Part shown: piece after piece, positions 30,109-49,689 of the stretch
Position numbering within the stretch: the stretch's first letter is position 1
Layout of the letters: every line of letters starts with the position of its first letter
Origin: a candidate division FCPU426 bacterium
GTDB taxonomy: Bacteria > Oederibacteriota > Muellerivitia > Muellerivitales > Muellerivitaceae
NCBI GenBank assembly: GCA_963719085.1
Contig: CAVRAL010000004.1
Coordinates: 224,001-288,000, forward strand
Length of the DNA: 64,000 bases
Reading direction: 5' to 3'
Notes under the pieces: model-generated
What the model was told of the DNA's origin: nothing
The model's input: the letters and a program-made list of their open reading frames with translations, nothing else
Database searches by the model: none
Position numbers and translations under genes: made by a program

Positions 30109-30249
30109 GACGTTTTTAAAATTTATCCTTCTTTAATTTTACCGATTTTTGAACTGGATCAGAGTGGCCGGCCACAAGGGAACCCTGTGGCGCATCGAGA
30201 CTTCGTCTCGATACTACCGTTTTGAAATTAAATTTTTTAAGGAGAAAAA

Positions 30250-30294
30250 TGGTGGGGCATCCTGGATTTGAACCAGGGACCAAGGCATTATGAG
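30250..30294 (-). pseudogene. 3' half of the host CAU tRNA, intron-less, at the left island junction
   Basis: Reverse complement CTCATAATGCCTTGGTCCCTGGTTCAAATCCAGGATGCCCCACCA; tRNA similarity stops at the anticodon loop. Confidence 0.92.
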
Positions 30295-30361: not shown

Positions 30362-31552
30362 TTAAGCAGTGACCTGCTCGTTCTTCTTTTTAGCGGCACC
30401 TGTCATATTCCTGTCATTGAAATCAGTCGCCTTGCGCAAAGCCGCGCGGCGGTCTTCCCTATCCACACGGTCATACTTCCGAAACACCGCATGGGTCTTA
30501 TGGCCTGAAATCGACATAATGACCGAGTCGCTCACTCCCGCTTTTCTCAAGTTCGTAATCGCGCAATGCCTGAGATCGTGAAACTTAAAATTCTCAATCC
30601 CAGCGTTGCGGCACGCCCTTCTAAAAGCGGTCTTCACACTTTCCATACTTTGACCGCGCCAAGTGAAAACACAGGGATTGACCAGCCGTTTTTCCCTATC
30701 CGTTAAATCAGAATACGGCTTGCCCAGTTCCCCATTTGGATATTTTTCAATATCAAAACAGGGTAGCGTCTGGGGAATCTGCTTCAGGAGTTCCTGCATC
30801 TCCTCCATCAGCGGTATTTCCCGTCGTTCCTGCGTCTTGGTGTCCTCCGCTTCGAGGACAATCACCCCATTCTTGAAGTCCACCTGATCCCAACGCAACT
30901 TCAAGATTTCACCACACCGCATGGCCGTCAAATAAGCCAGCCTTACAATGGGCTTCAAATGCCCCGAACAGTTTTCCAAGAGCTTTTGATACTCTTCCGG
31001 GTCCAACGTCCGGTTCCTAAAAAAGGGTTTGAATTTCTTCACCCCCTGAATTGGGTCCCATTCGATCATCCGGTTCAAAACCGCCCGATGCATCAGGGCT
31101 TTCAAAATGGCGATATCTAGGTTCAGCGTGGCGTCTGAAACCACTTTATCAGGCCGGTTTCGGTGTCCCTTTTCCCTTCGGCGGACCAAATAAGCTTCCA
31201 CCAAATCCGAACTAAAACTGTCCAAGGGACGATCACCAAAAAACTCCTTGAACCATTTCATCCGGTAGGTATCCCGAAGGTAGCTTTTCTTTCTGGCCTT
31301 TGAATAAGCCAAATAGGAATCCACCGCCGCGAAAAAACCAACCTTCGGTTTATCCGGAGCCAAATACTTCTGCTCCGCCATATCCCCCATGTTCTGGGCC
31401 AAAATCTTCTTGGCTTGCGACAAAGGAATCTGTCCCAACCGAACCCTTTTTCTTTTCTTCAGTCCCTTTTCCTGGACGAAATAATCCAGAAAATAACCCG
31501 CCTCATCCTTTCTCAGATGTTGCGGCAATCCATGAACATTAGGCTTAGCCAT
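30362..31552 (-). CDS. tyrosine recombinase/integrase (island integrase)
   Basis: AMRCGEI, KTQERR, FHDLRH, SGHKT...KY catalytic set; 3' end 68 bp from the att core. Confidence 0.93.
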   Translation of the reverse strand: MAKPNVHGLPQHLRKDEAGYFLDYFVQEKGLKKRKRVRLGQIPLSQAKKILAQNMGDMAEQKYLAPDKPKVGFFAAVDSYLAYSKARKKSYLRDTYRMKWFKEFFGDRPLDSFSSDLVEAYLVRRREKGHRNRPDKVVSDATLNLDIAILKALMHRAVLNRMIEWDPIQGVKKFKPFFRNRTLDPEEYQKLLENCSGHLKPIVRLAYLTAMRCGEILKLRWDQVDFKNGVIVLEAEDTKTQERREIPLMEEMQELLKQIPQTLPCFDIEKYPNGELGKPYSDLTDREKRLVNPCVFTWRGQSMESVKTAFRRACRNAGIENFKFHDLRHCAITNLRKAGVSDSVIMSISGHKTHAVFRKYDRVDREDRRAALRKATDFNDRNMTGAAKKKNEQVTA

Positions 31553-31955
31553 ACTTCCCCCTAATGTCCCCAGCGAAAACATTCTAGCAGGGGAACATTG
31601 CTTTTGCGAAAGCTATCAAAATTCCGATTTCTACAACACGGGTGTTAATCACCGTGTTAAAAATCAAACAAACTCCCTGGAGTGATTAAAACTACTCGGG
31701 CAAGCCATAAACAAAAACAGCAATTTTTGCGGTATTGTCGGACGAGGGAGAGAAGAAAAAAACGTGCTTATCTACCCGTATTATTTGAAATAGATTTTGA
31801 CGATGGATTGGTGAATTTAACTTGTTGCGGTAGGTAAGACTGCGGAACAGATTGCCAGCACACTCTTTCGTATTTATGCATCCGGTCTGATAGATCAGAG
31901 TGCGCTGGCTCTTAATTTAAAAAGTAATCAAAATATAAAACACAAATCGTTCTAA

Positions 31956-32750
31956 TTAATCAAAATTTGATGAGTCACGTTCCTCTTCAAAGACCCAAAG
32001 TAAAGAAAGCGCCGAAGTAGAATCACCTAATCTAATTGCTTGTTCAGATACCGACACGCTCAACTTATCCGGAAGCTCAGAAAACCAATTATCATAAAAT
32101 ATCTTTTGCATCGATGTTTCTTGCAAGTTATTTTTAATGCAGTTAAAAGCCATCGTCTTCTGTTTTAATTCCCATTGACGTTCTATAAATAATTTAGACT
32201 TATTCTTTTTCCACCAAACAACTTTCAAATCTTTTGAATATACGAGAAAACAATTTTCCTTAGTTGCATCAATAAACCTGAGAGCCGTGGCAGTAAACGA
32301 AGTATCAAAAACACTGGACAACTTTTTGATAGATGCAATTCCCGGTTCTAAAGAACGACATATGGGAAAAAATAGATTTCTTGGCATAAGTACTTCGGCA
32401 GCAAAAATATTCGCTTCCGTTTCAATCGAATCTTCTTCATTAACCGCCATCATATCTTTGTCATTGCAGATACTTGAAAATTTACTATCACGGTGCATTT
32501 TCCAATGACCAAGTTCATGGGCTACGGCGAAACGTTTTCTTCGAGGATCATCATTGGCGTTTATAGTAACAATTCCATTTTCGCCATTTTGAACTAACCT
32601 AGCATCAGCACCTCTAATAACTCCTTCTCGAACAATCAATCCTTGGTCCATTGCGATGTCTTCGATTCTTATATCTTCTGGCGTTTCAAATGAATACCGA
32701 TCAATAAACTTAGATGCTTCAATATGAGCCCGAGTTATATCAGCCTTCAT
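31956..32750 (-). CDS. ImmA/IrrE family metallopeptidase
   Basis: RKRFAVAHELGH (HExxH), ETEANIFAAEVLMP, FDTSFTA. Confidence 0.9.
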   Translation of the reverse strand: MKADITRAHIEASKFIDRYSFETPEDIRIEDIAMDQGLIVREGVIRGADARLVQNGENGIVTINANDDPRRKRFAVAHELGHWKMHRDSKFSSICNDKDMMAVNEEDSIETEANIFAAEVLMPRNLFFPICRSLEPGIASIKKLSSVFDTSFTATALRFIDATKENCFLVYSKDLKVVWWKKNKSKLFIERQWELKQKTMAFNCIKNNLQETSMQKIFYDNWFSELPDKLSVSVSEQAIRLGDSTSALSLLWVFEEERDSSNFD

Positions 32751-33192
32751 TGCTTCGCATCTTTCTTTGATGAATTTCTTCTAATAGCTTTAAATCTTTA
32801 AGAAGAGTAATCAAATCTTCATCGGCAAGATTTTCAAAATTTCTATAGTGCGCAGTTAGTAATTGGCGTCTGTCAGGCGAAATCGTCGAAACAAAATCGA
32901 TAAGCGCTTGTTTTACATTTGAAATATTTATTTCCAGATTCGATTCATTAGAAATAAACGTACTTTCGATTTCTTTTCTTTTGGCTTTTGCGGAATCCAA
33001 TTTTATTCTCGTGCAAATAACGTCGAATTGCCTACGCGCAATTTCCAAACGCGAATCAATATTAAAACCGTCTTCAACAAGCTCTTTACGAACTTCTTTA
33101 ATTGGCATCGATATTATTTCTTCAGGTTTTAGTTGAACAAAATCAAAAATGGATTGAAGCGTTTCTGTGTAATTTCTTTTTGTGTCGCTCAT
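32740..33192 (-). CDS. hypothetical helical protein between the sigma-like and ImmA genes
   Basis: Tightly coupled ORF with GAGGTG RBS; no recognised motif. Confidence 0.7.
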   Translation of the reverse strand: MSDTKRNYTETLQSIFDFVQLKPEEIISMPIKEVRKELVEDGFNIDSRLEIARRQFDVICTRIKLDSAKAKRKEIESTFISNESNLEINISNVKQALIDFVSTISPDRRQLLTAHYRNFENLADEDLITLLKDLKLLEEIHQRKMRSNEG

Positions 33193-33195
33193 GTT

Positions 33196-33822
33196 TCACC
33201 TCTCCGTTTCATTGGCTATAACGTTCAAATAATTTTCATCAATGATTTTCTGAAGTCGGCGATCAATCTGCTTTTTAAAGGCGGCGATTTGCTTATCACT
33301 TTTGCTCATTTGGTTAGCAATTTCAGCCGGTTTCAAATCATCTAAATATAATTCCAAAAACTTTATTAAATCGGCGTCATTTTCAATCACGACAAATAGT
33401 TTTGTCAGAATATCGCCACTAATTTTTTCAATTTCTTGTCGTTGGGTGTCAGTTAGCGGATTTGAAGAAATCTGTTCGAATACGTCTTCAACCTTTGAAT
33501 GAACTTCGCCTTCTTCATCATAAAAAGGTTTTTTAATATGGTTGTTATCTTCGTCTACCTGCAAGTTCCAAACTTCGCTTTTGACCATTTTGAATAAGAC
33601 TGGCAATAAATCAGGATACTTTTCTTGATTCCAATTTCTATCTCCACTACTAACTTTTGCAAAAACGCGAACAACTATATCCTCGCCCTCTTCCCCGTTA
33701 GCGGGTATTCCACCGTACTTCCCTTGCCAAAACCTACGTCTAAGTAAACCGTTGGCATACTTGGATAGCCTGAGATACCAATCCTCGAAATTCGTTTGAA
33801 TTAGATCCATTGGATTAGGCAT
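33196..33822 (-). CDS. ECF sigma factor-like protein
   Basis: Region-2-like EDIVVRVFAKV...LFKMVKSEVWN; C-terminal HTH LKPAEIANQMSKSDKQI. Confidence 0.65.
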   Translation of the reverse strand: MPNPMDLIQTNFEDWYLRLSKYANGLLRRRFWQGKYGGIPANGEEGEDIVVRVFAKVSSGDRNWNQEKYPDLLPVLFKMVKSEVWNLQVDEDNNHIKKPFYDEEGEVHSKVEDVFEQISSNPLTDTQRQEIEKISGDILTKLFVVIENDADLIKFLELYLDDLKPAEIANQMSKSDKQIAAFKKQIDRRLQKIIDENYLNVIANETER

Positions 33823-34228
33823 TTTTGGCCAAAGTTCCCGTTGATTTGTTCATCCCATCATCCTCTCACACTACCTATATGCTAATTATTCGAACATTAT
33901 GCCGAAATAATCATTCGATTTATTTTCGGCATGTTTGGAAATTTCTTAGCAGTATATAGATAAGGGGATAAATCCCCAAAAATGGCTAAAACGATTAAAA
34001 GGAATCGCCAGTTTGAGCGAAAACATCTGAGTCGATACTGTATCGACGAATCGAACATCTCAACAAGAATATCGGCTTAAAACCTATATTTAGACTTTAT
34101 ATGTTCCCCTCCGATGACTTTCATTCTAACTTACCCGCCGCCCCTAGGCGGTTAATCATTCGGTTCCTAGATTGTTACGCCCACTCCGTGAAAACGTAGT
34201 GAAATTTCAGTTAATGGAGGTTTTGATT

Positions 34229-34342
34229 ATGAAAGTTGGAAATATTATTTTATTTGCCCTTGGAGTATTTCTTTTTGGTGCGCTTACCGGCGGAGCCTTT
34301 GTTCTCAAAACTATGCAACCTAAACAAAATCTGCTGAATTAA
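34229..34342 (+). CDS. 37-aa single-TM peptide
   Basis: Translated by hand: MKVGNIILFALGVFLFGALTGGAFVLKTMQPKQNLLN; GGAGG 8 nt upstream; stop adjoins the next gene's RBS. Confidence 0.6.
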   Translation: MKVGNIILFALGVFLFGALTGGAFVLKTMQPKQNLLN

Positions 34343-34352
34343 GGATATAAAA

Positions 34353-34787
34353 ATGGGATTTTTCGAATACGATTCAGATGATATCGCCCAAACAATTGAA
34401 CAATGGCAGGCCACAGGAACAACAGAAGAAGAATGCGAAGAATCACTGGGTAAATACCTAAACCAAAAATTTGAAAAACCAGTTTTTCACAGACAGTTCA
34501 CAATTGGAAAATCAAGAGCGGACATATACGTCCGATTCCCCGGTGGTGCCTCTGTCGCAATTGAACTAAAAAGCAATTTAACAGAACGGACAGAGTTTCA
34601 ACGTTTGATCGGTCAAATGTATGAATACTTAAATGTCAGCGATGTGGAACTAGTAGTTGTACTGTGCGGGGATGGCAATCCCGCTCTCGAAAAGATGGTT
34701 CGAGACGCAGTTGCTTTTTTTAACGAACATCACGAAAAGAAAGTTCGTTACGTTAAAAAGGGCGTCACCGCCTTATCAGTTAATTAA
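34353..34787 (+). CDS. PD-(D/E)XK restriction-endonuclease-fold protein
   Basis: E...RADIY...VAIELK...LIGQMYEY. Confidence 0.7.
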   Translation: MGFFEYDSDDIAQTIEQWQATGTTEEECEESLGKYLNQKFEKPVFHRQFTIGKSRADIYVRFPGGASVAIELKSNLTERTEFQRLIGQMYEYLNVSDVELVVVLCGDGNPALEKMVRDAVAFFNEHHEKKVRYVKKGVTALSVN

Positions 34788-34794
34788 TCCCGGG

Positions 34795-34828
34795 GAGCAA
34801 AACTTTGAATAAAAGTTTTGCTCTTCTT
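34795..34828 (+). terminator. hairpin/terminator upstream of the MBL operon
   Basis: GAGCAAAACTTT-GAATA-AAAGTTTTGCTC followed by TTCTT. Confidence 0.5.
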
Positions 34829-34896
34829 ACTCACCAAAAAATCAACTTATCTAAAAATGATTTATTGATTATTTAAAAAATAAGCGAGGTTATAAA

Positions 34897-36063
34897 ATGG
34901 ATTTTTCTAGAATTGGGCGCGGAGTAATTTATTGGCCTGTTGGTAGCGGTGACTCTTCCACAATCATCGTTGACGAAAACACTATCATACAAGTGGATAT
35001 TAACAAGCGAGCTGACTCAGAAGAAGAAAATACCCTTTATACAAATATTGTTGAAAAGCTTAGAACTTCATTGCGAAAAAAGGATGCAAAGCCCTATCTC
35101 GATGTGTTCGTATTAACTCATCCAGACCAAGATCATTGTAAAGGATTCGAAGAACTTCTTAAAAATGTGACCATAGGAGAGTTATGGTTCACACCGCGAG
35201 TTTTCAAAGAATTCAAAACCGATTTATGCGATGACGCAAAAGCGTTTCACACAGAAGCAGAACGTCGAATCAAAAAAATCATCCAAGAAAATGGCAACGT
35301 CACTTCAGGTAACCGCGTTAAATTATTTGGTTATGACGAGATAATTGGTAAAGGTGGTGATTACGAAGGTTTTCCAAAAGAGCTTTTGATCATACCTGGA
35401 ACATCTTTTAACTCGGTCGATGGGGTTTATCGAACTGAAGTTGACTTTTTTGCGCATAGCCCATTCAAAGATGATATGGACGGAGAACGAAATCACACCA
35501 GCCTTTCATTTCAAACCGTACTTAAAAAAGCCAATAAAGAACTAAAATTACTTCACTTCGGCGATTTGGCACACTTGCAATTAAAAAAGATTTTTGAAAA
35601 AACGAGCGATTCAGACAATCTTGGGTGGCACGTTTTGCTTGCTCCCCACCATTGTTCAAAATCAGCTATGTATCACTCCGAAGACGCGGATAGCGAAGAA
35701 ACTCTTCAAGCCGATTTCATTACCGGAATAACTAGCACCAAAGAGAAAGTTGCTTATATTGTTTCAAGTAGTGAAATTATCCCAGCAGACAATGACAAAG
35801 GCGATAATCCACCTCATGCCAAAGCGAAAAATCGTTATGTAGAAGTTGTAAACGAAAATTTCTTTTGCACTCATGAACACCCTGATGAAAAAAATCCAGA
35901 GCCAATAATCTTCAGATTGAACGATGACGGGAACATCGTTCCACCACAGCCGACAAAAAAAGAAAAAAAGGACCAAGGAAAATCTTTGGGAGCGAGTATC
36001 TTGACCGCCAGAGGGACAACTAATCAACCTCCCAAAAACCCAAGGCAATTTGGTCATGCTTGA
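34897..36063 (+). CDS. ComEC-like metallo-beta-lactamase-fold hydrolase with low-complexity tail
   Basis: PVGSGDS, LTHPDQDHCKG, HFGD, APHHCS; tail ...PPKNPRQFGHA. Confidence 0.85.
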   Translation: MDFSRIGRGVIYWPVGSGDSSTIIVDENTIIQVDINKRADSEEENTLYTNIVEKLRTSLRKKDAKPYLDVFVLTHPDQDHCKGFEELLKNVTIGELWFTPRVFKEFKTDLCDDAKAFHTEAERRIKKIIQENGNVTSGNRVKLFGYDEIIGKGGDYEGFPKELLIIPGTSFNSVDGVYRTEVDFFAHSPFKDDMDGERNHTSLSFQTVLKKANKELKLLHFGDLAHLQLKKIFEKTSDSDNLGWHVLLAPHHCSKSAMYHSEDADSEETLQADFITGITSTKEKVAYIVSSSEIIPADNDKGDNPPHAKAKNRYVEVVNENFFCTHEHPDEKNPEPIIFRLNDDGNIVPPQPTKKEKKDQGKSLGASILTARGTTNQPPKNPRQFGHA

Positions 36064-38266
36064 AAAACAACAGACAGCAGTTCAAGAACTAAGAGATATA
36101 GAATCAACATCTAATAATGGCATTGAGCTAGTAACATCGCCGCATTTCGATGTATCGACACAAACAACAGTTATGGAAATCTCTATCGATTGTTCAAGCT
36201 TTGAGATGCGCGGCAATAATCATTTGTCACTTTCTCAACGTGAACGAGTAGTGATATTTTTAGACAAGAATTATCCCTTTTCCATACCGATTGTTGCAGT
36301 TTTTCATAATAGATTCATTACTTCCGCACACGTTCAGTGGATGCGGGAATTTGAAAAATATAAGGCTGTACTACCCACAATTTGCCTATATCAATCACCA
36401 TCCAATGATTGGGAGCCAAGTGAAGGGATGTTTGGGCTTATGGATAGATTAGTAAAATGGTTTGCTCGCGGTGCCGTGGCAGAGCTTGATCTTCCCGGAG
36501 ACCCGATTCATGCTCCCCTTGCCTATTACAGTCAATCCAATCCTATTCGTATAGTTCTGAGCAAAAACGCTCCAACGGTTGGTAGAGAAAGTTGGATTGG
36601 ATATTTTAAATATAAACGCATTAAAGAAAACATTTACGAAGTCGTTGATTTCATTCAAGACACTGATATTGATGACAGTTGTGGCTTAGGTTGTGCTTTT
36701 TTATTACCTCACGAAACATTTTTTGAATTCCCCAATCAATTAGACCATTTAATAAAGCTCATAACAAACCACGGAAACATTAATCAATCCACGATTGCTT
36801 CTAATATGGCAAAAGTCCAAAATCGCATTGGAAAAAATTTTCCTTTATTTGTTATGGTAGGCTCACCGATGCGAGGAATTGCGGGCGAAGCAGAAAGAAA
36901 ACTGCATCTAGCCATCGGTGATATAAGTGCACAGGCCATAACAGACAAAACTGACTTAAACAGTATTAATTGGTGCAAATCTTACGAAAACCGTGAAGAA
37001 ATAATTATCAAAAGAGATAACTACTCAAATATCACTTCATTAAGAGATAAAAATATTTTACTTATCGGGGTTGGAGGTCTGGGAGGATATGCTGCCGAAT
37101 CAATCGTTCGTAGTGGAGCTAAAAAAATAACGGTAGTAGATTTCGGCGAAGTGCATCCAGGACTGTTATCAAGACAAAATTACACTCACGAAGATATTGG
37201 AAAACCAAAAGTCGAAGCAATCCGCGATAGAATTACCAAAGTAAATCCAAACTGCGAAGTAACAATTATCAATAACGATTTTCTGACGGTTGCCGATTCC
37301 ATTAAATTTGAAGATTTTGATTTCATCATTAATCTAAGCGCCTCAAATCCAATTAATCTATATTTTGAACAACTTTCGAAAACTAAAAGATTTCCAACTG
37401 TTGCAGTGGGACTTATAAGTGCCGATGCCAAAGTTTTGCTTGGAACAATATCCGACAAAACTTATATCGGCGGTCAAAAGCAATTACTTCGTAACTTTCA
37501 TATTCGAATGCTTTCTGATAGAGAATTAGAAGAAGTTACCAAGAAAATATGGCCTGAACCAGGCAATGAAAATAACTTTCAGCCAGAACCCGGTTGCTCT
37601 GAACCGACTTTTACCGGTTCTGCAACCGACATGCAATTCCTTTCGTCGTTTTTCATTAATCAAATTTCAGAATACTTCGGACAACAAAACACCACATCGG
37701 GCCGCTTATTTGGCATACATCAACCAACCAACGGAATTACAAAGACATGGAGTTTTTTCCCCGAATGTTATCAACAATTCGATATATCCGACAACGATGC
37801 TAAAGTTAGAATTTCATCAAAATCATTAGCACAATTAAAAAGCCATGTCGCAAAAGCACAAAAGTTACGTGGTTCATCTTGTGAAACAGGCGGCTTAATG
37901 TACGGAAGAGTTGAAAATGCTATCGATTTAATTTGGGTTGACGAATGTACCGATGCGCCAAGTAATAGTGAATTTTCCGCAAGTGGTTTTCATTGCGGGA
38001 CAAATGGAGTCGAAGAATTATCAAAAAAAATATCTAAAGCCACTAATGGAGAGAGTTGTTTCATTGGATATTGGCATACACATCCTAACGGGCCAACAAA
38101 GCCCAGTTTTACAGATTTACTTGCGGCATTTGAAACAGTTTCGACTTCCGGAGAAAATCTAAGACAAGTATTATTCATGATTATTAATCCGGACAATTTT
38201 TCATTTGATTTTTATTTCTTCGATCACGTTAACGGTCAATTAAGGATAGTCATTGTCAGAGAATAA
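36056..38266 (+). CDS. E2-E1(ThiF)-JAB fusion (Cap2-Cap3-like)
   Basis: E2 YPFSIP...AHV...ICLY; E1 GVGGLGG, VVDFG, SRQ, GKPKV, PEPGCSEPTF; JAB ETGG...WHTHPNGPTKPSFTD; ATG at 36056 overlaps the MBL stop. Confidence 0.88.
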   Translation: MLEKQQTAVQELRDIESTSNNGIELVTSPHFDVSTQTTVMEISIDCSSFEMRGNNHLSLSQRERVVIFLDKNYPFSIPIVAVFHNRFITSAHVQWMREFEKYKAVLPTICLYQSPSNDWEPSEGMFGLMDRLVKWFARGAVAELDLPGDPIHAPLAYYSQSNPIRIVLSKNAPTVGRESWIGYFKYKRIKENIYEVVDFIQDTDIDDSCGLGCAFLLPHETFFEFPNQLDHLIKLITNHGNINQSTIASNMAKVQNRIGKNFPLFVMVGSPMRGIAGEAERKLHLAIGDISAQAITDKTDLNSINWCKSYENREEIIIKRDNYSNITSLRDKNILLIGVGGLGGYAAESIVRSGAKKITVVDFGEVHPGLLSRQNYTHEDIGKPKVEAIRDRITKVNPNCEVTIINNDFLTVADSIKFEDFDFIINLSASNPINLYFEQLSKTKRFPTVAVGLISADAKVLLGTISDKTYIGGQKQLLRNFHIRMLSDRELEEVTKKIWPEPGNENNFQPEPGCSEPTFTGSATDMQFLSSFFINQISEYFGQQNTTSGRLFGIHQPTNGITKTWSFFPECYQQFDISDNDAKVRISSKSLAQLKSHVAKAQKLRGSSCETGGLMYGRVENAIDLIWVDECTDAPSNSEFSASGFHCGTNGVEELSKKISKATNGESCFIGYWHTHPNGPTKPSFTDLLAAFETVSTSGENLRQVLFMIINPDNFSFDFYFFDHVNGQLRIVIVRE

Positions 38267-39365
38267 AAGAATCGGACTATGTCTTTCCGGTGGCGGCTTT
38301 CGAGCGGTTGCTTTTCATTTGGGGTGCCTCCAAGGCCTTAATAACCTTGGATTGCTTAAACACATTCGATCAATATCCTGTGTTTCTGGCGGCTCAATCA
38401 TAGGCACGCTCTACACTCTGTACGGTCAAACAGACTTTTCAGAATTTGAAAAAAGAACCAAAAGAATGTTACAAACTAGGCTTGATCTTAAAATTGCCTA
38501 TAAACATATTTCTTCAGGGCGATTCTTATTCGATCTTTGTCAGTTGGGCACGTGTCTTCCAATACGATTTATTTCTCAAAAACTAAACTTCAATTTTGAA
38601 TTTCAAAGAAAATATAGTCTGACCGAATCACTCGTTAAGATATTTGATAAAGAATTTGATAAAAAACTTCTATCAAATCTTCAAAACTCTCCCATTGAAC
38701 TTATTATTAACGGGATTGAATTAAGAACATTTAGTGCAATTCGTTTCGGAGCTAAAAAAGCTGTTTGTTGGAGATTCGGCGAGATCGACCCTTCTCTAAT
38801 TTCGTTGGGAGAAGCCGTTGCTGTTAGTGCGGCTTATCCCCTGCTTTTACCTGCCTTAGAGCGAAAATACAGTTTTTCAAAAAAGGGAATAACCTACAAG
38901 GAAACTGTTTCTTTATCTGATGGCGGAACATATGACAATCTTGGACTCACACCATTTATAAGCACAAATGACTTCGCAGATAGTTATCCCCGACCCGAAT
39001 TAGACTACATTATTGCATGCGACGCCGCTCACGGACAGCTTCATCCACAAACATTGCCACACACACCCATTTCAAGATTACACGCCGCATTCAAATCGTT
39101 GATGAGTCGTTCTAGGCACTCTAACTTTAAAACTCTTCATAAGCTTAAAGAAGATGGTGACATAAAAGGTTTTTCATTAGCTTATTTAGGTCAACAAGAT
39201 GAAAGAATCCCAATTCCACCTATCGATTTAGTTCAGAAAAATCGTGTGGACTCATATCCAACAGATTTTAAAAAAATGAGTGACGACAATTTTGAAGTTC
39301 TAACTAAACGCGGCAGACAACTCACCGAATCTTTAACTACGCACTATTTACCAGAATTATTTTGA
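38253..39365 (+). CDS. patatin-like phospholipase
   Basis: LSGGGFRA, VSGGS nucleophile, SAAYP, DGGTYDN. Confidence 0.9.
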   Translation: MSENKRIGLCLSGGGFRAVAFHLGCLQGLNNLGLLKHIRSISCVSGGSIIGTLYTLYGQTDFSEFEKRTKRMLQTRLDLKIAYKHISSGRFLFDLCQLGTCLPIRFISQKLNFNFEFQRKYSLTESLVKIFDKEFDKKLLSNLQNSPIELIINGIELRTFSAIRFGAKKAVCWRFGEIDPSLISLGEAVAVSAAYPLLLPALERKYSFSKKGITYKETVSLSDGGTYDNLGLTPFISTNDFADSYPRPELDYIIACDAAHGQLHPQTLPHTPISRLHAAFKSLMSRSRHSNFKTLHKLKEDGDIKGFSLAYLGQQDERIPIPPIDLVQKNRVDSYPTDFKKMSDDNFEVLTKRGRQLTESLTTHYLPELF

Positions 39366-39379
39366 ACAATAAAAAATTG

Positions 39380-42300
39380 TTATCTTTTATTCTCATTTAA
39401 TGGTGGCAAGCCATTAACAATCTTCATGGTTTCGAGACTAACCGTCACAATGCGCTTTACCAAGTTAAGAATATATTGGGGATCATCGGACCAGTCGTTA
39501 GGATCATTGGTTATCTGGCTGTCTGATTCTATTGAGACTTGATATCGTTCCATAATCCATTCCAGTGCCGGACGACCATTAACTACATAATCATAAGCCC
39601 TCAGCGGAATGTCTTTTAGCGTAATGTGACTGTTATACACAATTGTTGTTTTATCCACTTGTCCATCGAGCTTGCCAAATATCATCTTACGAACCTTATA
39701 AAATTCTTTTGAATTAAGGTCAAACTGATCTTTGCTTACTTCTAGGGGATAGGGGTCAATATCTTCATAGTGGAGATGCCATTTTGCTAAATCTCTGCCA
39801 GCTTTACTGAAAATCCAAAAATCCTGAGCAAAAGGAATTCTAGGAATCATCTTACCGAGATCTGAAGAGAACCGAGTTTTGTATTCAAAAGAATGAAGAA
39901 TGCCATAAACATAATAAAAAATATCTTCTTCCCCAATCTTTTTGTCCGAATATTTCTCCCTAAATAACTTTACCGAAATGTCAGAAATCGCTTTCGATAT
40001 TCCATTCTCTTCATGAAATTGAAACCCCAAATTTTCGGAATTTTCCAGTGATTCAGATTTTTTATTGTATCTCAGCGGAAAACATTGTCCTTTCGAGATC
40101 ATTTCAAGATCAGGCAAAGCGTTAGAAATTAAAGCTGAAAACTCTTTAGTCGCACCTCGCCCCGTTACACAGATCACAAGGTTTTCAGTATTTATATCAG
40201 GAAAATATTTCGGCATTTGATAAACAGTGTTATTAAAACTTCTATTGAAATAAATCCATTGTTTGCAAAATGGTCTATAAAGACTTTTTACGATCGATTC
40301 TTTTTGAAATTTATGTACAATTCCTTTTTCAACGTCCCACTTGAGTTCTCTTGTCCAACTAATTTTTTTCGGATCATTTTCCACAAATCCTTCAATAGAA
40401 ATGTTTTTGCTTTTTGTGGCCGTTTTATAGTCTTCTGTTTGTTCGTTGTAAAATCGAATCATTCGCTTAACGTTAGCGATCAATTCATTTTTATTAAAAT
40501 TATAAACCCACGCATCTCGATTAGTTTTCACTCCCATGGAGTAACTATTAAAAATCGAAATGTTTTTCTCGTCGTCTTTATCACCTAAAGGAATAAATTT
40601 TTCAAAAGTTGGGTCGCGGTGATTTATCCAATCATGACTCGAATTTGGGACAATCTTAGTCCAAGGAATTGCTTTCGAGCTTTCAAACTCGTTAATGATT
40701 TTCAGTTTTTGTTCGCGAGTTAAGTAATCACCAATATCGTGATAAAAAAGTTGGCAAGTTCCCTTTTTTTCAGGATTCTTTATAAGCAAAGTAATTGCTA
40801 TCGAAGTTCGCGTCCCTTCACCAAAGACACTTCCCTTTTCTTTACGTCTCTGCTCACCAGAAGTACGAGCATTCCCTCGAAGGTTAAAACAATAAATAGA
40901 TGTAAAATCGTCCGTTAGACACTTACGGAATCCATCCATAGCATTCCCATCAATAAAAGAACCATTACTGACATAACAGATAACACCCTTTTCACCAATA
41001 CGGTCACCAGCCCAACGAAAAGCTCGAATGTAGGAATCGTAAAGACTATTTTTGAGAGTGGCCGTAGAAAAAGCAGCGTAAGTTTGTCGAATTTTTTCAT
41101 CTAAGCTTGGATATTTTAAATTTTTGTTCCCATCATTTTCGCTCGCTTGTAAAGCTGAGTAAGGTGGATTTCCAACAATAACTCGAATATCTTTTTTCTT
41201 TTGACGCGTAACACGTTCGTTATTTTCAGGAAAATACTTTTCATCCCAAGGACTCTTCGGTTCCGACATTTGAAATGTATCAGTCAGAACAATCCCATCA
41301 AAAGGTTCATACTTTCCACCAGCAAGCCCGTGATAAGCCTCTTCAACATTGATCGCCGCAATGTAATAGGCCAAAAGGACAATTTCATTAGCATGTAGTT
41401 CTTCTTTAAATTTGCGTTTAAGGTCTTCGGGTTTAATCAAACCATTTTGAAGAAGACGAACTATGAAAGTTCCGGTGCCAGTAAACGGATCAAGAATGTT
41501 TACCCCTTTATCAGTGAGCCCAACACCAAATTCTTGCTTTAAAGCCTCGTCCGCGCTTTTGACAATAAAATCAACTACTTCAACTGGTGTATAGACAATT
41601 CCCAAGCGTTCAGCCATCCGAGGGAAAGCAGACCTAAAAAACTTGTCGTATAGCTCCACAATAATCCGCTGTCTACCTTTTGCGTTATCAACACCACTCG
41701 CTCTCTCTTTGACACTTTCATAAAACTTTTCCAATTTTGCAGTTTCCTTCTCTAAACTTGCACCTTCCAAAAGATCAAGCATCTTCTGCATAGCTATAGA
41801 AACGGGGTTTTGTTGGGTAAATTTATAGTTTTCAAAAAGAGCGTCAAAGACTGGTTTAGTAATTAGATGTTGAGAAAGCATTTCAACAGCTTCCTCTTTA
41901 TCAATACTTGGATTGAGATTGTCTTGAAGGCCTTTTAAGAATTCATCAAAAGCGGCTTTATGCTTAGGTTTCGCACCCTTTAACAAACCCTCAATGCGAG
42001 TTTTGTGTCTTTCGGCTATTTCAGCCACATCTTTAGCCCAGCTCTCCCAATAGCGACGGTCACCGCATTTAAGAACAATTTTGGCATAGATGGCATTTCG
42101 CCATTCTTCTATATCTGGAAACTTGAATGCGCTTTGCCCGTATGGGGCCTGCGTTTCATGCGCGCCTGAAGTTTGACCCTCCTCTGCCTTATCACTACCG
42201 CCTACCCCTATTACTTGAATCTGGTCAGGACGGGATTTGTTTAATTCGATTTGATTAACTGTGGCGTTAAAACGGTCGTCATGAGCGCGAAGGGCCTGCA

Positions 42301-44164
42301 AAACCTGCCAAACAACTTTATATTTTTTATTATCTTTTAACGCTTCTTCTGGCGGTGTGTTGGCAGGAACACCTATCGGAAGAATGATGTAACCATACTT
42401 TTTACCTTCGGCTTTTCTCATAACCCGTCCGACAGATTGGACTACGTCCACAACCGAATTACGGGGATTGAGAAACATAACTGCATCAAGAGCTGGAACA
42501 TCTACCCCTTCGGCCAGACAACGAGCATTACTAAGAATACGACAAACATCACCTTCCGAAGCTGTATCAGCTTTAAGCCAATCGAGTCTTTCATTGCGTT
42601 TCAGAGCATTAAAAGTGCCGTCAACGTGCTCAACCTGACAGGCTAGGAAATTGTCATCGTCTTCATGCTGTTTACGATATTGGTCAACAATATCGCCAAA
42701 GAGATTTGTAATTCTTTGAGAATCTTTAATTGATCGACAAAAAGCAACTGCCCGATGCATGTGACCAAGGTCATTGGCGATACCATCTATTTCAGAACCT
42801 TTAACAAAACGCTTACTCAAACCATTCCAGCAACCGGTTATCTTTACGGCATCTTCAAGATTAAGTTCGCTATTACTATCAGCCAACATTTTTTGCAAAG
42901 AATTATTAACGTAACTCTCATCAACAGCCAGAACCATGACTTTGTAATCCGAAAGCAAGTCTTTACGAACAGCTTCAGAAAAATCCAAACGATAAAACTC
43001 TTTCCCATAAAGCGATTCGTCATCCATTGAACAGATTTCCGCATTTGCCTCTTCGGCCTTGGTTCTTGATTCATCACTGTAAATACGCGGAGTGGCCGTC
43101 ATATAAAGGCGTTTACCGCCTTTTATGAATTTCGGATCGTGAACTTTAACGAAATGGGATTCATCATCCCCTTCCAAAGTTACGCCTGTCGTTCTATGCG
43201 CTTCGTCGCAAATAATTAGATCAAAATCAGGCGCGCCTAACTTTTGGGCCTCTGAAATAACTTTAATAGATTGGTAGGTACTGAAAATAACCGTTAATTG
43301 CTTTTTACCGCCAAAAGCTTTTAATTGTGCCGCAAGTTTCTTTGCGTTAGTTGTTGCTGGTAATGGAAGATCGTGAGCTTGTATATCTTCACTCTCATTT
43401 TTCCTACCCACCTTAACATCTGAGCAAACCGCAAAATTATGAAGGGAAGCTTCTGCTTCCGCAGTCCACTCTCTTAGCGTTTGAGAAACAAGTGAGATTG
43501 AAGGCGCCAAAAAAAGAATAAATCCTTTCTCTCCCGCCATCTTTTCAGCGATTTTAAGAGAAGTGAAAGTTTTGCCCGTTCCACAAGCCATGATTAGTTT
43601 GCCGCGATCAGCTTTTTTAAATCCTTCAAGTGCATTGGAAAGAGCTTCTTTTTGATGATCTCTAAGTCTCTTTTTCTCTTTTAGTTTTATATTTTGAGGG
43701 CGGCTAAGGCTGAATTGGTTCCAATCAATCGGACTGTTAGCGAGGTCTTGAACCCTTAAGCGGGTAACCGGTGTCCGTTGGTTTTCCAAAGCTTCTTCAG
43801 CATGATTACTCCACTTGTCAGTAGTGGAAACGATCATTCGAGTGGTAAACGGCTCTTTACCTGAAGTAGTAAAAAATGAATCTATATCAGCTTTTTGGAG
43901 ATTGTAGTTAGGGTCATAAAATTTGCACTGAATGGCGCAAAATTCACCCGTATAGCGATCTTTAGCTACAAGGTCGATGCCAGTATCAGGCTTCTTTCCA
44001 CGGCCAGGCCATTCCGACCAAAGCCAAACGTCACTAAATTGATCTTTGTATATTGGGTCAGTGACAAGATAGTTGGCAATTAAACGTTCAAACTTATCAC
44101 CCAAGTCACGATTAGAGGTTGCCGCTTGTCTGAATTCTTCCAGCAACGTATGTATTGTTGTCAT
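39380..44164 (-). CDS. type ISP restriction-modification enzyme (LlaGI/LlaBIII-like)
   Basis: Mrr-like GIDLV...AIQCK; helicase MACGTGKT, DEAHR, QSVGRVMRK; methyltransferase DPFTGTG and NPPY; C-terminal TRD with YRPF. Confidence 0.93.
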   Translation of the reverse strand: MTTIHTLLEEFRQAATSNRDLGDKFERLIANYLVTDPIYKDQFSDVWLWSEWPGRGKKPDTGIDLVAKDRYTGEFCAIQCKFYDPNYNLQKADIDSFFTTSGKEPFTTRMIVSTTDKWSNHAEEALENQRTPVTRLRVQDLANSPIDWNQFSLSRPQNIKLKEKKRLRDHQKEALSNALEGFKKADRGKLIMACGTGKTFTSLKIAEKMAGEKGFILFLAPSISLVSQTLREWTAEAEASLHNFAVCSDVKVGRKNESEDIQAHDLPLPATTNAKKLAAQLKAFGGKKQLTVIFSTYQSIKVISEAQKLGAPDFDLIICDEAHRTTGVTLEGDDESHFVKVHDPKFIKGGKRLYMTATPRIYSDESRTKAEEANAEICSMDDESLYGKEFYRLDFSEAVRKDLLSDYKVMVLAVDESYVNNSLQKMLADSNSELNLEDAVKITGCWNGLSKRFVKGSEIDGIANDLGHMHRAVAFCRSIKDSQRITNLFGDIVDQYRKQHEDDDNFLACQVEHVDGTFNALKRNERLDWLKADTASEGDVCRILSNARCLAEGVDVPALDAVMFLNPRNSVVDVVQSVGRVMRKAEGKKYGYIILPIGVPANTPPEEALKDNKKYKVVWQVLQALRAHDDRFNATVNQIELNKSRPDQIQVIGVGGSDKAEEGQTSGAHETQAPYGQSAFKFPDIEEWRNAIYAKIVLKCGDRRYWESWAKDVAEIAERHKTRIEGLLKGAKPKHKAAFDEFLKGLQDNLNPSIDKEEAVEMLSQHLITKPVFDALFENYKFTQQNPVSIAMQKMLDLLEGASLEKETAKLEKFYESVKERASGVDNAKGRQRIIVELYDKFFRSAFPRMAERLGIVYTPVEVVDFIVKSADEALKQEFGVGLTDKGVNILDPFTGTGTFIVRLLQNGLIKPEDLKRKFKEELHANEIVLLAYYIAAINVEEAYHGLAGGKYEPFDGIVLTDTFQMSEPKSPWDEKYFPENNERVTRQKKKDIRVIVGNPPYSALQASENDGNKNLKYPSLDEKIRQTYAAFSTATLKNSLYDSYIRAFRWAGDRIGEKGVICYVSNGSFIDGNAMDGFRKCLTDDFTSIYCFNLRGNARTSGEQRRKEKGSVFGEGTRTSIAITLLIKNPEKKGTCQLFYHDIGDYLTREQKLKIINEFESSKAIPWTKIVPNSSHDWINHRDPTFEKFIPLGDKDDEKNISIFNSYSMGVKTNRDAWVYNFNKNELIANVKRMIRFYNEQTEDYKTATKSKNISIEGFVENDPKKISWTRELKWDVEKGIVHKFQKESIVKSLYRPFCKQWIYFNRSFNNTVYQMPKYFPDINTENLVICVTGRGATKEFSALISNALPDLEMISKGQCFPLRYNKKSESLENSENLGFQFHEENGISKAISDISVKLFREKYSDKKIGEEDIFYYVYGILHSFEYKTRFSSDLGKMIPRIPFAQDFWIFSKAGRDLAKWHLHYEDIDPYPLEVSKDQFDLNSKEFYKVRKMIFGKLDGQVDKTTIVYNSHITLKDIPLRAYDYVVNGRPALEWIMERYQVSIESDSQITNDPNDWSDDPQYILNLVKRIVTVSLETMKIVNGLPPLNENKR

Positions 44165-44290: not shown

Positions 44291-46003
44291 TTATTTTTCG
44301 TTCCCCTTCAAAAACTCCCCATCCCATAACCTGTTTTGATCTATTTCCTTCTGATCCGCGAGATGTTCTTTTATGAAATTTTGAACCCGAGGAATACCTG
44401 CCGAATCGAGCAACGCCCGTTTAAGCCATTCAGTAAATGCTTCTTTTGAGCCTTCTCGTAAATAAACATTTCCAATTTCAAGGAAAATTCGAATTTCAAG
44501 AATCTGCGGCAAATTGACACTTGATACTCGATATCTACTCTTCAAATAACTTTCAAAAACAGAAACTATGTCCGCAATATTCCACGGGAATTTTTGTTTG
44601 GTAATAACATAATATGCAATAGTTTCAATTGAACATTTATCAAATAACGCCACATGCTTTTCAGCAACTTTTTCCCATTCGGGACGTTTTAATTCCGTTT
44701 TGATAACTCGATTATATAAGACATATTCCACAAGCATTCTTCGCCGATTATCTTCGTCCACCTGGCCGAATTGTTGTTCAAAGACTTTAAATAATTCATC
44801 CAGAGAAGTCAGGCCGTTTTTATCACCTATCAAAGCACTTTGAAATTCTTGAAAAAATCCGGTTAAATATTCACCGCATCTTTGAGATGTAAACCCCGCA
44901 TGATTTCCAATCCAATACTCAGGAGCCAATCTCATTTTGAACATTCCCGGTAAATCGGAATACCAGTCATACTGTTCTTTTTCAAGATGTTCCCCACGGG
45001 CAATAAATTGTTCAATAACATGGTTCGCCAATCGAAACATGCCCCTATACGATAAATAAGGTGAGTTCTCCCAAACAAACGCATCGGCACGGGCAATCAC
45101 AGGTACTTTCAATTGATCGAGAATCGGTTTGAGAACATGAGCAAATTCTGAGCGGAATTTATAAGCTTCTGAAAGCGCCTTACGAAGTTCGCTTTTTCGA
45201 ATAGGTCTTTGAATGTCGGTTATTTCTTGAATAAAGTAATCATCCGTAACATGAGAAAGAATAAATTCGACAAATTGAAATTGCGATTTAACGTGTGCTG
45301 ATTCCAATAAAACTTTTCTAATTTCCTGTATCTTTTCAATGCTTAATTCAACTTCTACAGTTTCAAGTTTTCTTTTTACATCTTCGTGGTAATCATCCCA
45401 AGTTGCAGTAAAACCGCTATGTCCTATGGACAGGGATTCCAATGCAAAAACAAGAAGTGTGTAAGCCAGATCAATGTTGTAGTTCAGAACAACCAAAGAA
45501 TTTTCAATTGTCTCAAGACATCGAATAACAGCTTTATACTTCGCGCGCGGCAAACCTATTACCTTTTTAACGAACTTCTCAAAATCATCTACAGTTTTAG
45601 GACTACCAAGTACTTGTTTACTACAATAACCAGACACAAAAGCCGCAGGAACGTAAACATCTCCTTTAGTTATCTGCTCTCTTCGGCACTGGTAAATAAT
45701 GTCTTGTTCGTTTTTGGCAAAAAAAGATTTAAAACCAAACATAGCCAAAAGCCTAAACTGGACCCTTATTTCTTCATCATCGGCTAAAACCACCACACCA
45801 GCTTTCTGCGGCGCTTTCTCCAGTTGATTAACAAAATTAAAAACATAAGAATTAACTAACGAATATCGATCAACCCCATCAAGGTCACCGACACATGTCT
45901 TTATTGCACCTATCCAAGCAAAGTTTGAGTAATAGATGGCTTTTTCATTACTTGTATTTCGTTCTTCGGAATTAAAAAACTTCCCAGAAATTATCTGTAA
46001 CAA
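44291..46003 (-). CDS. hypothetical protein, possible HEPN (ApeA-like) RNase
   Basis: LVFALESL helix followed by an Rx4H motif (FRSEFAH). Confidence 0.5.
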   Translation of the reverse strand: MLQIISGKFFNSEERNTSNEKAIYYSNFAWIGAIKTCVGDLDGVDRYSLVNSYVFNFVNQLEKAPQKAGVVVLADDEEIRVQFRLLAMFGFKSFFAKNEQDIIYQCRREQITKGDVYVPAAFVSGYCSKQVLGSPKTVDDFEKFVKKVIGLPRAKYKAVIRCLETIENSLVVLNYNIDLAYTLLVFALESLSIGHSGFTATWDDYHEDVKRKLETVEVELSIEKIQEIRKVLLESAHVKSQFQFVEFILSHVTDDYFIQEITDIQRPIRKSELRKALSEAYKFRSEFAHVLKPILDQLKVPVIARADAFVWENSPYLSYRGMFRLANHVIEQFIARGEHLEKEQYDWYSDLPGMFKMRLAPEYWIGNHAGFTSQRCGEYLTGFFQEFQSALIGDKNGLTSLDELFKVFEQQFGQVDEDNRRRMLVEYVLYNRVIKTELKRPEWEKVAEKHVALFDKCSIETIAYYVITKQKFPWNIADIVSVFESYLKSRYRVSSVNLPQILEIRIFLEIGNVYLREGSKEAFTEWLKRALLDSAGIPRVQNFIKEHLADQKEIDQNRLWDGEFLKGNEK

Positions 46004-46097: not shown

Positions 46098-46568
46098 TCA
46101 ATTGTCTAAAGACCCTTCGTGTTCGGTGTATTCCTCCGTCGTCCATTTATGCCCGCAAAGCGGGTCTTTACATTCCCAAAAGTGGCAGATCGTTTCATTA
46201 ACCATTTTGACCTGCTCCAATCGACTGACTTCATACCCCTGATTTGGGGTAAAAATTTCATTGGAATAGAGAACCCCATGGTCAATCCGCTCCACCGTTT
46301 CGAGATTTTCCCATTGTTCGATAACCTCGCCTTTAACGAATTGCCTTTTCCAGAACCGCTTGCACTGAGGACATCGGCTTTGGAATGCTTTCACCAAGCA
46401 CCAAACCGCCGGCTTTAAGGTGATGCAGTACAGCGGATAAAAAACAAACCAGAAGGCCTTTAGGACAAAACAGACCGCGCCTAAAGCCATCATCAGAAGA
46501 AACACGGCCAATACCACGGCGAGCCCAAATAAAAACAGATAAGCCAAAAAGCTAAATAAGGTATGCAT
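46098..46568 (-). CDS. membrane protein with split Zn-ribbon
   Basis: Hydrophobic N-terminus; CPQC...CKDPLC. Confidence 0.6.
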   Translation of the reverse strand: MHTLFSFLAYLFLFGLAVVLAVFLLMMALGAVCFVLKAFWFVFYPLYCITLKPAVWCLVKAFQSRCPQCKRFWKRQFVKGEVIEQWENLETVERIDHGVLYSNEIFTPNQGYEVSRLEQVKMVNETICHFWECKDPLCGHKWTTEEYTEHEGSLDN

Positions 46569-46717
46569 AGTTCCCCCTTTGCCGGGCTAATAACATGCTG
46601 AAAAAATCCCCCGAACGGATTTTTTCAGCCGACAACATCTACGGTAACCCCACGATTCCTGCTGAATCTTTGGGGTGACAGGCTGCTTTGTAGCTCTATT
46701 ACTTTTTTAGCAACCTG

Positions 46718-47901: not shown

Positions 47902-47950
47902 GGCGACCCCCCCTATCGACTTTCTTGATGCATAGATAGGGGGGGTCGCC
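47902..47950. repeat. perfect 16-bp inverted repeat
   Basis: GGCGACCCCCCCTATC-N17-GATAGGGGGGGTCGCC. Confidence 0.85.
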
Positions 47951-48162
47951 ATCGGAGTGTGGAAAAACCCGCCTTAAAAAGCCAAAAACGCCAAAATCAT
48001 AGTTCCATGGCACGGAACTACTTGTGGCACAACTTGGTTCGGTATGAGGGGGATGGGAAACATGGTTTGAGGTGTTTTGCGAAGGCGCTTCGATGCTATT
48101 TTCGACATTGCTTCCCCGGACTTATCGGGTTCTGGGTATCAACATCTTCGGAGGACAAACAA

Positions 48163-48450: not shown

Positions 48451-48484
48451 CCTGGGATATTCAAAAATAAGGAGTGTTTAACTA

Positions 48485-49663: not shown

Positions 49664-49689
49664 GGAAACCCGATAAAGAGACAAGCCTT

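Follow-up and report, generated by a model that had tools for sequence, protein, structure and literature searches.

A probable patatin-bearing variant of the 6A-MBL conjugation system on a 22-kb integrative island of a candidate division FCPU426 bacterium

In the present study, we analysed a three-gene operon in a stretch of 64,000 nucleotides (nt) of DNA, called the window below, from a candidate division FCPU426 bacterium (GenBank assembly GCA_963719085.1, contig CAVRAL010000004.1, positions 224,001 to 288,000 of the forward strand). The operon encodes an enzyme of the metallo-beta-lactamase (MBL) fold, a single protein in which the domains E2, E1 and JAB follow one another as in cap2_3 proteins (the ligase in what follows), and a patatin-like phospholipase. 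On balance, we favour the reading that this is a patatin-bearing variant of the 6A-MBL system, residing on an integrative island of 22 kb and probably activated by a DNA-damage-responsive regulator of the CapP/CapH type. In this variant, ubiquitin-like conjugation would be coupled to a lipase by the mechanism proposed below. Judged by their profile matches, the first two genes are a divergent 6A-MBL pair; this core is known, and it is the patatin gene that sets the locus apart.

The three genes are overlapping open reading frames (ORFs) on the plus strand (Table 1). Each junction overlaps by at most 14 nt, and the overlap of the MBL and ligase genes, which lie on the same strand, is 14 nt. The catalytic residues are intact in the MBL enzyme, the ligase and the patatin alike. 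An earlier note on this DNA had described three overlapping genes with intact catalytic motifs; its coordinates proved exact, and the motifs that it named are invariant in alignments of 73 MBL, 73 ligase and 56 patatin sequences. For the ligase, an identical database protein (P0001) has 736 amino acids (aa), which corresponds to a start at the ATG at 36056.

The MBL enzyme was assigned by the NCBIfam equivalog model NF058524 (6A-MBL_enzyme), which it matches over the full profile (1-346) with 302.4 bits (cutoff 220) and an E-value of 4.2e-90. Pfam by itself would miss the MBL call, its one match being Lactamase_B_2 at a sub-threshold 0.004, and PADLOC gave weak matches to the unrelated MBL accessory models RTasMBL, PDC-M48B and LmuA (1e-7 to 1e-9). 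The best NCBIfam match of the ligase by far was NF058523 (6A-MBL_cap2_3; 8.4e-84, 282.3 bits, cutoff 320), and the NCBIfam model of Cap3 matched it below cutoff at 2.6e-5. The pairing of an MBL enzyme with a Cap2-3 fusion, which the earlier note had taken for the 6A-MBL system, is thus supported. In addition, Pfam recognised Prok-E2_A (7.5e-15, residues 14-159), ThiF (7.5e-24, 328-462) and Prok-JAB (3.8e-9, 604-713) in the ligase, and PADLOC recognised its E1-E2 part (PDLC00857, 6.8e-66) and its JAB part (PDLC00890, 9.8e-21). The PADLOC check that had been proposed for the locus thus succeeded for the E1-E2 and JAB parts and left the patatin unmatched. PADLOC v2.0.0 has no 6A-MBL model; the system name was supplied by NCBIfam, which holds two 6A-MBL models only. 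The closest solved relative of the ligase is Cap2 (PDB 7to3, 3.3e-24) of the antiphage signalling system based on cyclic oligonucleotides (CBASS). The GxGxxG loop of the E1 domain (G340, G342, G345) together with R354, D364, K387 and C516, and the JAB motif (E612, H676-x-H678, S686, D689), are invariant among the 73 sequences.

Van den Berg et al. are said to have validated the 6A-MBL system in Pseudomonas aeruginosa in 2024. A passage of a review (PMC13276650) cites it as an anti-phage system and credits the same authors, and a passage of a preprint places it among the defences against jumbo phages, beside a system directed against the early vesicle of the phage (bioRxiv 10.1101/2025.09.30.679545). 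Operon type 6a had been defined earlier by Iyer, Burroughs and Aravind in 2006 as "usually two genes", of which one encodes an E2-E1-JAB protein of three modules and the other a specialised MBL (PMC1779556), and the word patatin is absent from that paper. The present locus agrees with the known system in its gene order, with one E2-E1-JAB protein encoded directly downstream of the MBL gene, in the matches to the two models, above the cutoff for the MBL and below it for the ligase, and in a conserved [FY]G tail of the MBL enzyme, which is also present in the two-gene form on plasmids. It differs by a third, translationally coupled gene for a patatin. We found no description of a patatin-bearing 6A-MBL system, fused or with the patatin as third gene, in the open-access and bioRxiv papers searched; an earlier description elsewhere is possible.

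For the survey of relatives, one genome per species was scanned, which gave at least 442 confirmed relatives among at least 600 pattern matches. The best 80 loci were analysed by calling their ORFs and searching these with the proteins of the window. In 41 of these 80 loci patatin and ligase form one fused protein, and in 27 the patatin is encoded by a separate gene directly downstream. In the remaining loci it lies nearby (six), is absent (five: L010, L011, L012, L034 and L077) or has no room on the contig (L004). Among the nearby cases, L023 has it split off from the ligase by an IS110 element, L015 and L035 have an extra MBL-fold gene first, L029 contains a second system, and the patatin of L058 and L060 lies upstream on the opposite strand. 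The earlier note had proposed a phospholipase coupled to conjugation with no cyclase, and had named a lack of co-conservation of the patatin as what would speak against it. The proposal is supported and the lack of co-conservation did not appear, as the patatin is fused or adjacent in 68 of the best 80 loci and no cyclase was detected in their recurrent flanks. The MBL gene lies directly upstream of the ligase in 73 of the 80 loci by the automatic rule, and also in L004 and L062, in both of which the ligase ORF is split. It is missing in L003 and L014 and is a fragment in L023, and in L011 and L020 there is no room for it.

In the fused forms the patatin is C-terminal, after the JAB domain, and aligns collinearly with the separate patatin of the window to the last residues. 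A maximum-likelihood tree of the ligase part shows fused and split forms interleaved, with at least four changes of the fused state and at least two of the split state on supported branches; the tree does not track taxonomy. This repeated fusion and fission argues for a lasting functional, and probably physical, link between patatin and ligase. Six of 14 ligase relatives obtained by a word-based search at 27-30% identity carry a patatin domain in the same polypeptide. Furthermore, an exhaustive HMMER search of 1.84 billion cluster representatives with the ligase gave 268 proteins at E<=1e-30 and 879 at <=1e-10, and among the 149 best of these representatives 37 contain a fused patatin. A fragment of 344 aa (P0016) is the one close relative of the ligase itself, 64% identical over residues 396-738, and the other relatives in this search have identities of at most 35%. 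Since this fragment alone is close, the lineage of the present ligase is barely sampled.

Among plasmids, the top seven records matching the MBL enzyme (H1-H7, from Rhizobium, Rhodococcus, Pseudarthrobacter and Streptomyces) were all matched by the patatin as well. In total, 282 plasmid records match the MBL enzyme (Klebsiella 125, Escherichia 25, and others) and 56 match the ligase at 1e-5; the MBL-matching records with no ligase match at this threshold, which are the majority, were not counted as 6A-MBL. The patatin-bearing form was found in Myxococcota, Acidobacteriota, Actinomycetota, Chloroflexota, Gemmatimonadota, Planctomycetota, Verrucomicrobiota, Spirochaetota and several proteobacterial classes. 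The patatin-bearing architecture is a large and widely spread branch of the family and is not universal.

The patatin-less loci are informative on the third position. In four of these five loci, the ligase gene is followed directly by one for a small protein that has three to four strongly hydrophobic segments and no Pfam family, and two of these proteins (L010 and L034) are homologous to each other (1e-8). These proteins appear to be alternative membrane effectors. By analogy, the third position behaves like the exchangeable effector position of CBASS operons, being occupied by a phospholipase or by a membrane protein, and this apparent exchangeability is the main reason why we read the patatin as an effector. 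A fourth partner was sought among 766 ORFs within 5 kb of the systems, which were clustered; every cluster occurs in at most six of the 80 loci. The 20 flanking clusters present in at least three loci comprise, by Pfam, restriction-modification enzymes, helicases, integrases, transposases, regulators of the helix-turn-helix (HTH) and M78 types, and several without a family, and a Pfam search of their representatives gave no cyclase or nucleotidyltransferase.

Some individual arrangements of the survey deserve mention. In two Dehalococcoidia loci (L015, 5253-7247; L035, 12616-14419) the ligase is followed by a smaller MBL-fold gene (Lactamase_B, 1.9e-7) and a more distant patatin (about 1e-19 to the patatin of the window), and this arrangement is a four-gene variant. 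In five others (L017, L031, L032, L062 and L067, at about 5.5-8.8 kb) a co-directional set upstream of the MBL gene encodes a Phd/YefM-like protein, a ThiF protein (8.2e-27), a JAB-like protein and a protein of 276 aa; this set may be another, stacked ubiquitin-like conjugation system. The patatin gene on a Rhizobium leguminosarum plasmid (L081, 9382-10570) is frameshifted and annotated as two hypothetical proteins. In L023 (12379-13791) the transposase of the IS110 element stands between the ligase and its patatin.

The patatin of the window matches the Pfam family PF01734 at 6.6e-17 and 62.8 bits (cutoff 27.7). It has a Gly-rich oxyanion loop (SGGGFR, residues 12-17) and an S45/D223 dyad, and S45-G46-G47 and D223-G224-G225 are invariant among the 56 patatin sequences. 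In the present copy the first glycine of GxSxG is replaced by cysteine (CVSGG). An AlphaFold2 model reached a predicted local distance difference test (pLDDT) score of 93.3, and Foldseek retrieved patatin, PlpD, CapE and CapV, the fold being a generic patatin one with template-modelling (TM) scores of 0.50-0.56. In the profile search CapE appeared at just 1.3e-3, ranked after PlpD, ExoU and VipD, and no PADLOC v2.0.0 family matched at E<=0.01. By sequence, the patatin is not of the CapV or CapE type. Many homologues have a hydrophobic stretch in a helical insertion (about residues 67-135), and the present copy is without it.

The label "CBASS-like", which the earlier note had given to the operon, holds in part. 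It is supported by the homology of the ligase to Cap2 and Cap3, and it fails for the patatin, given its type. Patatins are called common CBASS effectors in a passage of the review PMC13276650. With type II CBASS the locus shares, by homology, a Cap2-like E2-E1 part, a Cap3-like JAB domain and a patatin-fold lipase in the operon, as well as a putative substrate with a C-terminal tail of the glycine type and CapP/CapH-type regulators adjoining the operon. In contrast to type II CBASS, Cap2 and Cap3 are fused here, an MBL-fold enzyme stands in the place of the cyclase, and the patatin, besides its different type, is often covalently fused to the ligase in relatives. Furthermore, there is no cGAS/DncV-like nucleotidyltransferase (CD-NTase): none was detected in 57 ORFs of the window by PADLOC or in 27 by Pfam, which agrees with the earlier note's statement for the island. 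The window is the examined part of a contig of at least 1.29 Mb.

The MBL enzyme was modelled with AlphaFold2 from 73 homologues (mean pLDDT 88.7). The closest structure by Foldseek was the MBL domain of ComEC (9ic4, 2.6e-12), followed by the phosphorylcholine esterase Pce, PhnP and RNase J/Z, and 9ic4 also ranked first in a profile search of the PDB (1.4e-4). The metal-site residues H75, D77, D79, H80, H187, D223, H251 and H252 are invariant among the 73 sequences. The fold suggests a metal-dependent phosphodiesterase of the ComEC-like type, and probably a nuclease.

From residue 351 on, pLDDT falls to about 50-60, and some 38 residues at the C-terminus are predicted to be disordered. The NCBIfam 6A-MBL_enzyme model ends at residue 345, so this tail is outside its span. 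We found that 72 of the 73 homologues have the motif [FY]G among their last 12 residues, the sole exception being L064, which ends in IGQG, and that G386 is invariant in all 73. The number of residues that follow the motif is variable: none in 10 sequences, one in five, two in 27 (HA in the present enzyme), three in 14, four in 14 and six in two. The motif is also kept in the two-gene form on Clostridium plasmids (...TYGK) and in the patatin-less loci. A conserved terminal glycine with a short variable extension is a signature of ubiquitin-like precursors. The conserved motif and its extension mark the MBL enzyme as the probable conjugated moiety, and the tail statistics give direct sequence support for a conjugation of MBL that is already assumed in the field. 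A passage of Ye et al. from 2024 (PMC11601596) states that MBL pathways conjugate their own enzyme through a fused E2-E1, with targets unknown, and that JAB peptidases cut conjugates and/or pre-proteins. As in the Bil and Bub ubiquitination-like pathways of bacteria (PMC11601596), E1, E2 and peptidase would act on a C-terminal glycine after removal of a precursor tail, and the context is a defence island. The Bil/Bub systems use a dedicated small ubiquitin-like protein, whereas no beta-grasp protein is present here and the putative moiety is an enzyme of 388 aa; here, in addition, E1 and E2 are fused and Cap2/Atg7-like in type.

A predicted complex of the E2-E1 part of the ligase (residues 1-575) with the MBL enzyme supports their binding. 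Its score was 0.63 (0.63, 0.57 and 0.65 in three runs), with 0.00 for the best control. The same mark is attained by 116 of 157 solved complexes and by 2 of 215 mismatched pairs, counts that hold roughly here since the model was made with our own alignments. The runs share at least 80% of contacts, and the pLDDT of the partner is at least 85. In the modelled interface, residues 267-270 and 297-320 of MBL and its tail (363-387) lie on residues 13-66 and 116-136 of the E2 domain, near C112.

In the proposed mechanism, MBL would take the part that is played by the ubiquitin-like protein or the CD-NTase in related pathways. The JAB domain would cut off the extension of the MBL tail (HA here) and, in uninfected cells, would undo the conjugates and so keep the system off. 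The E1 domain would adenylate Gly386, and MBL would then pass by way of Cys516 and Cys112 of the E2 domain to lysines of a target. The patatin would be a membrane-directed effector tethered to the ligase, in the fused forms by covalent linkage and here presumably as part of a complex, and would degrade phospholipids once infection triggers conjugation. Because no CD-NTase is present in the window, no cyclic-nucleotide step is supposed, and the system would work with no second messenger of this kind. What the data establish is the gene order, the domains, the intact catalytic sites, the membership of the MBL enzyme in its family, the co-conservation and fusion of the patatin and the tail motif. 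We infer this order of reactions, MBL as the conjugated moiety, the role of the patatin as effector and not as target, the trigger, and an anti-phage role of this copy; a role in defence is favoured by the other contents of the island, which include a Type ISP restriction-modification enzyme, CapP/CapH-like genes, RadC and SocA.

Several points weigh against this reading. As the 80 loci are the best of at least 442, the share with fused or adjacent patatin describes the nearer kin only and not the whole family. On Clostridium plasmids the system has two genes: 31 records were obtained in the MBL search, 28 in the ligase search and none in the patatin search, and because such two-gene forms occur, the patatin is not essential to the core system. 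Fusion fits the patatin equally well as conjugation target, localiser or sensor. The fold neighbours of the MBL enzyme in Foldseek include esterases as well as phosphodiesterases, and MBL could make or destroy a small-molecule signal instead of acting as a nuclease. In the complex model the MBL tail sits on the E2 domain and the adenylation pocket of E1 is not reached. Structures of Cap2 with another substrate exist, and likeness to solved Cap2 complexes may contribute to the score. Finally, the ligase misses the NCBIfam cutoff and stands on a very long, unplaced branch of the tree (2.1 changes per column, identity at most 31%), so a functional drift of this ligase is possible.

The alternative that survives best, to which we give a minor but real chance, makes the patatin the target of conjugation, or an enzyme activated by it: the ligase would attach MBL to a lysine of the tethered patatin, or the JAB domain would remove it, the lipase would thereby be switched on, and MBL would be its sensor and activator instead of an effector. 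Repeated fusion and tight adjacency do place the patatin by the active site of E2, the MBL tail motif is conserved, and the conjugation targets of type II CBASS are still called unknown in a passage of PMC11601596, so that a target in cis is conceivable. Nevertheless, the two-gene and membrane-protein forms keep the tail motif with no patatin, and since these patatin-less systems retain it, the core target cannot be patatin.

A less probable alternative, which we regard as doubtful, takes the MBL nuclease as the true effector. The patatin would be a second arm against lipid barriers around phage DNA, for instance the jumbo-phage early vesicle or virions that contain a membrane, and would give the conjugated nuclease access. 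This agrees with the closest fold of MBL, the nuclease domain of ComEC, with the two-gene forms, which do without a patatin by the definition of the family, and with the listing of 6A-MBL together with the vesicle-targeting system in the preprint passage noted above (bioRxiv 10.1101/2025.09.30.679545). For the present locus it is a conjecture, and the alternative third genes encode small membrane proteins, which fit a generic membrane-disrupting abortive infection better than the targeting of vesicles. A bolder picture can be drawn, and we put it forward as a long shot: conjugation would be wired straight to the lipase with no second messenger, the ligase-borne phospholipase and the conjugated MBL nuclease would together open lipid-enclosed phage compartments (jumbo-phage early vesicles, or virions with an internal membrane) and degrade the nucleic acid exposed there, and the third gene would be a swappable slot for membrane attack, filled by a patatin or by a small membrane protein. 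Such a defence logic would stand apart from CBASS signalling and from virion tagging of the Bil type.

We give very little credence to a degenerate or trans-acting CBASS, in which a CD-NTase elsewhere would be the true substrate of the ligase, its nucleotide would activate the patatin, and MBL would degrade the signal. In its favour, the ligase has homology to Cap2 and Cap3, the review passage (PMC13276650) counts patatins among the common CBASS effectors, a passage of a preprint describes the regulators CapP and CapH as first found with CBASS (bioRxiv 10.1101/2022.04.27.489752), and 64 kb of at least 1.29 Mb of contig were covered. However, no CD-NTase occurs in the window or among the recurrent flank families of the 80 loci, the patatin has no PADLOC match and its match to CapE is as poor as 1.3e-3, a covalently fused patatin requires no diffusible signal, and the conserved glycine tail belongs to MBL. 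It is just as hard to believe that the operon is non-defensive cargo of a mobile element (for element maintenance or for lipid and cell-envelope remodelling) or a decaying remnant, since, even though this copy has no known phenotype, the ligase is highly divergent and decay is seen in the family (the frameshifted patatin of the Rhizobium plasmid, the IS110 insertion of L023), the three reading frames are intact with every catalytic residue conserved, MBL scores above the curated equivalog cutoff of an anti-phage family, and both here and in related loci the operon has the neighbours that one expects in a defence island.

The targets of 6A-MBL are called unknown in the passage of PMC11601596, and the patatin-bearing form offers a handle on the mechanism through the lipase readout and the physical link between conjugation and effector. 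Since neither NCBIfam r20 nor PADLOC v2 has a model for the patatin of 6A-MBL, defence-finding pipelines probably call two of the three parts. In addition, the Cap2/Cap3 machinery appears to have been put to use again, for at least two kinds of "payload" enzyme and together with effectors that can be exchanged, and this is relevant to the diversification of ubiquitin-like conjugation in immunity.

Table 1. Features of the operon, of its island and of related loci. Positions are those of the window, except where a related locus is named.
Feature	Sequence	Position	Strand	Remarks
MBL-fold enzyme	window	34897-36063	+	388 aa
MBL disordered C-terminal tail, aa 351-388	window	35947-36060	+	short helix, conserved ARG-x3-PP, F385-G386, then HA
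E2-E1-JAB ligase/peptidase ("cap2_3")	window	36050-38266	+	738 aa from TTG start
E2 (UBC-like) domain, aa 14-159	window	36089-36526	+	catalytic C112 (ICLYQS); H86, H94, C112 invariant
E1 adenylation domain, aa ~304-571	window	36959-37762	+	PADLOC best stretch 304-571; ThiF; C516 (PEPGCS)
JAB/JAMM metallopeptidase domain, aa ~578-725	window	37781-38224	+	PADLOC JAB 578-725
Patatin-like phospholipase	window	38253-39365	+	370 aa
Left 45-nt direct repeat (att)	window	30245-30289	.	tRNA 3' exon copy, 93% identical to 52239-52283
Integrase	window	30362-31582		beside left repeat
CapP-like M78 metallopeptidase	window	31956-32750	-	PADLOC capP 2.9e-56 (8-253 of 264 aa); Pfam Peptidase_M78 7.1e-16
CapH-like partner of CapP	window	32740-33192	-	150 aa; PADLOC capH 5.7e-4, C-terminal part only
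Sigma-70/ECF (extracytoplasmic function)-like protein	window	33196-33822	-	208 aa; NCBIfam sigma70-ECF 3.7e-4, below cutoff
Right 45-nt direct repeat	window	52239-52283	.	3' exon of resident tRNA(CAU) gene
Membrane-protein gene after ligase	L010	12326-13018
Membrane-protein gene after ligase	L012	4047-4535
Membrane-protein gene after ligase	L034	8917-9717
Membrane-protein gene after ligase	L077	11838-12692

The operon is preceded by three divergent genes for regulators (Table 1). CapH and CapP together induce adjoining immune operons upon DNA damage, as a passage of PMC13373217 states, and a sigma-70-family gene is described beside capH and capP in 24 CBASS systems in a passage of bioRxiv 10.1101/2022.04.27.489752. 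The present genes resemble this pair in the strong capP match and in the adjoining small partner, divergent from an immune operon. They differ in the CapH-like protein, whose match is confined to the C-terminal part of the capH model, with no HTH family detected by the Pfam, PADLOC or NCBIfam scans and no Pfam family. Genes of the M78/CapP type lie upstream and divergent in seven of the 80 related loci, and the same three regulator genes precede the system in L064 (6293-8138), a metagenome-assembled genome of the Desulfobacteraceae. The CapP-like peptidase is likely a regulator of the operon. Instead of binding DNA as a repressor, the CapH-like protein could act on the sigma-like protein beside it, as an anti-sigma factor that CapP cleaves.

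Between the regulators and the operon lie a hydrophobic ORF of 37 aa (34230-34343) and an ORF of 144 aa (34353-34787), the latter with a weak match to the sce7726 family (8.4e-7, below cutoff) and with a perfect hairpin at about 34798-34822 on its 3' side. The 144-aa ORF was considered as a fourth gene of the system and rejected, having no homologue in the 80 loci and its own hairpin behind it. The 80 related loci contain no counterpart of the 37-aa ORF either, so that the stretch 34230-34822 looks like a separate, inserted unit. A scan of 33500-39700 for promoters and terminators was uninformative, with seven promoter-like sites against 16.6 expected and seven terminator-like sites against 5.0.

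A complete Type ISP restriction-modification gene (39380-44164, minus strand), with Mrr_cat_2, helicase, coupler, N6 methylase and specificity domains, converges on the patatin gene across a gap of 14 bp and gave a PADLOC score of 2297.9 bits. Adjoining it is the one large unannotated ORF of the island, of 570 aa (44291-46003, minus strand). It was considered as a hidden cyclase and set aside, as Pfam, PADLOC and NCBIfam gave no match and the ESM Atlas only conserved "hypothetical" clusters (score 0.99); it is a candidate defence gene of unknown type.

GC content is low around the operon (0.36-0.42; about 0.55 outside), within the 22-kb island bounded by the 45-nt direct repeats. The tRNA at the attachment site was located through these repeats together with an Rfam match to a group I intron (RF00028, 68.2 bits, 52291-52514), which splits the anticodon loop of a tRNA(CAU) gene running from 52540 to 52244 on the minus strand. 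ARAGORN reports no tRNA because this intron interrupts the anticodon loop. The 5' half of the tRNA has an exact second copy of 37 nt at 52902-52938, 398 nt off, which lacks a 3' half to match and may be left over from an earlier integration. Towards its right end (46098-52141) the island contains RadC (46718-47368), a second tyrosine integrase (48485-49663), DUF433 and SocA/Panacea antitoxin-like genes, which suggests that the island is a composite of two elements in one tRNA site.

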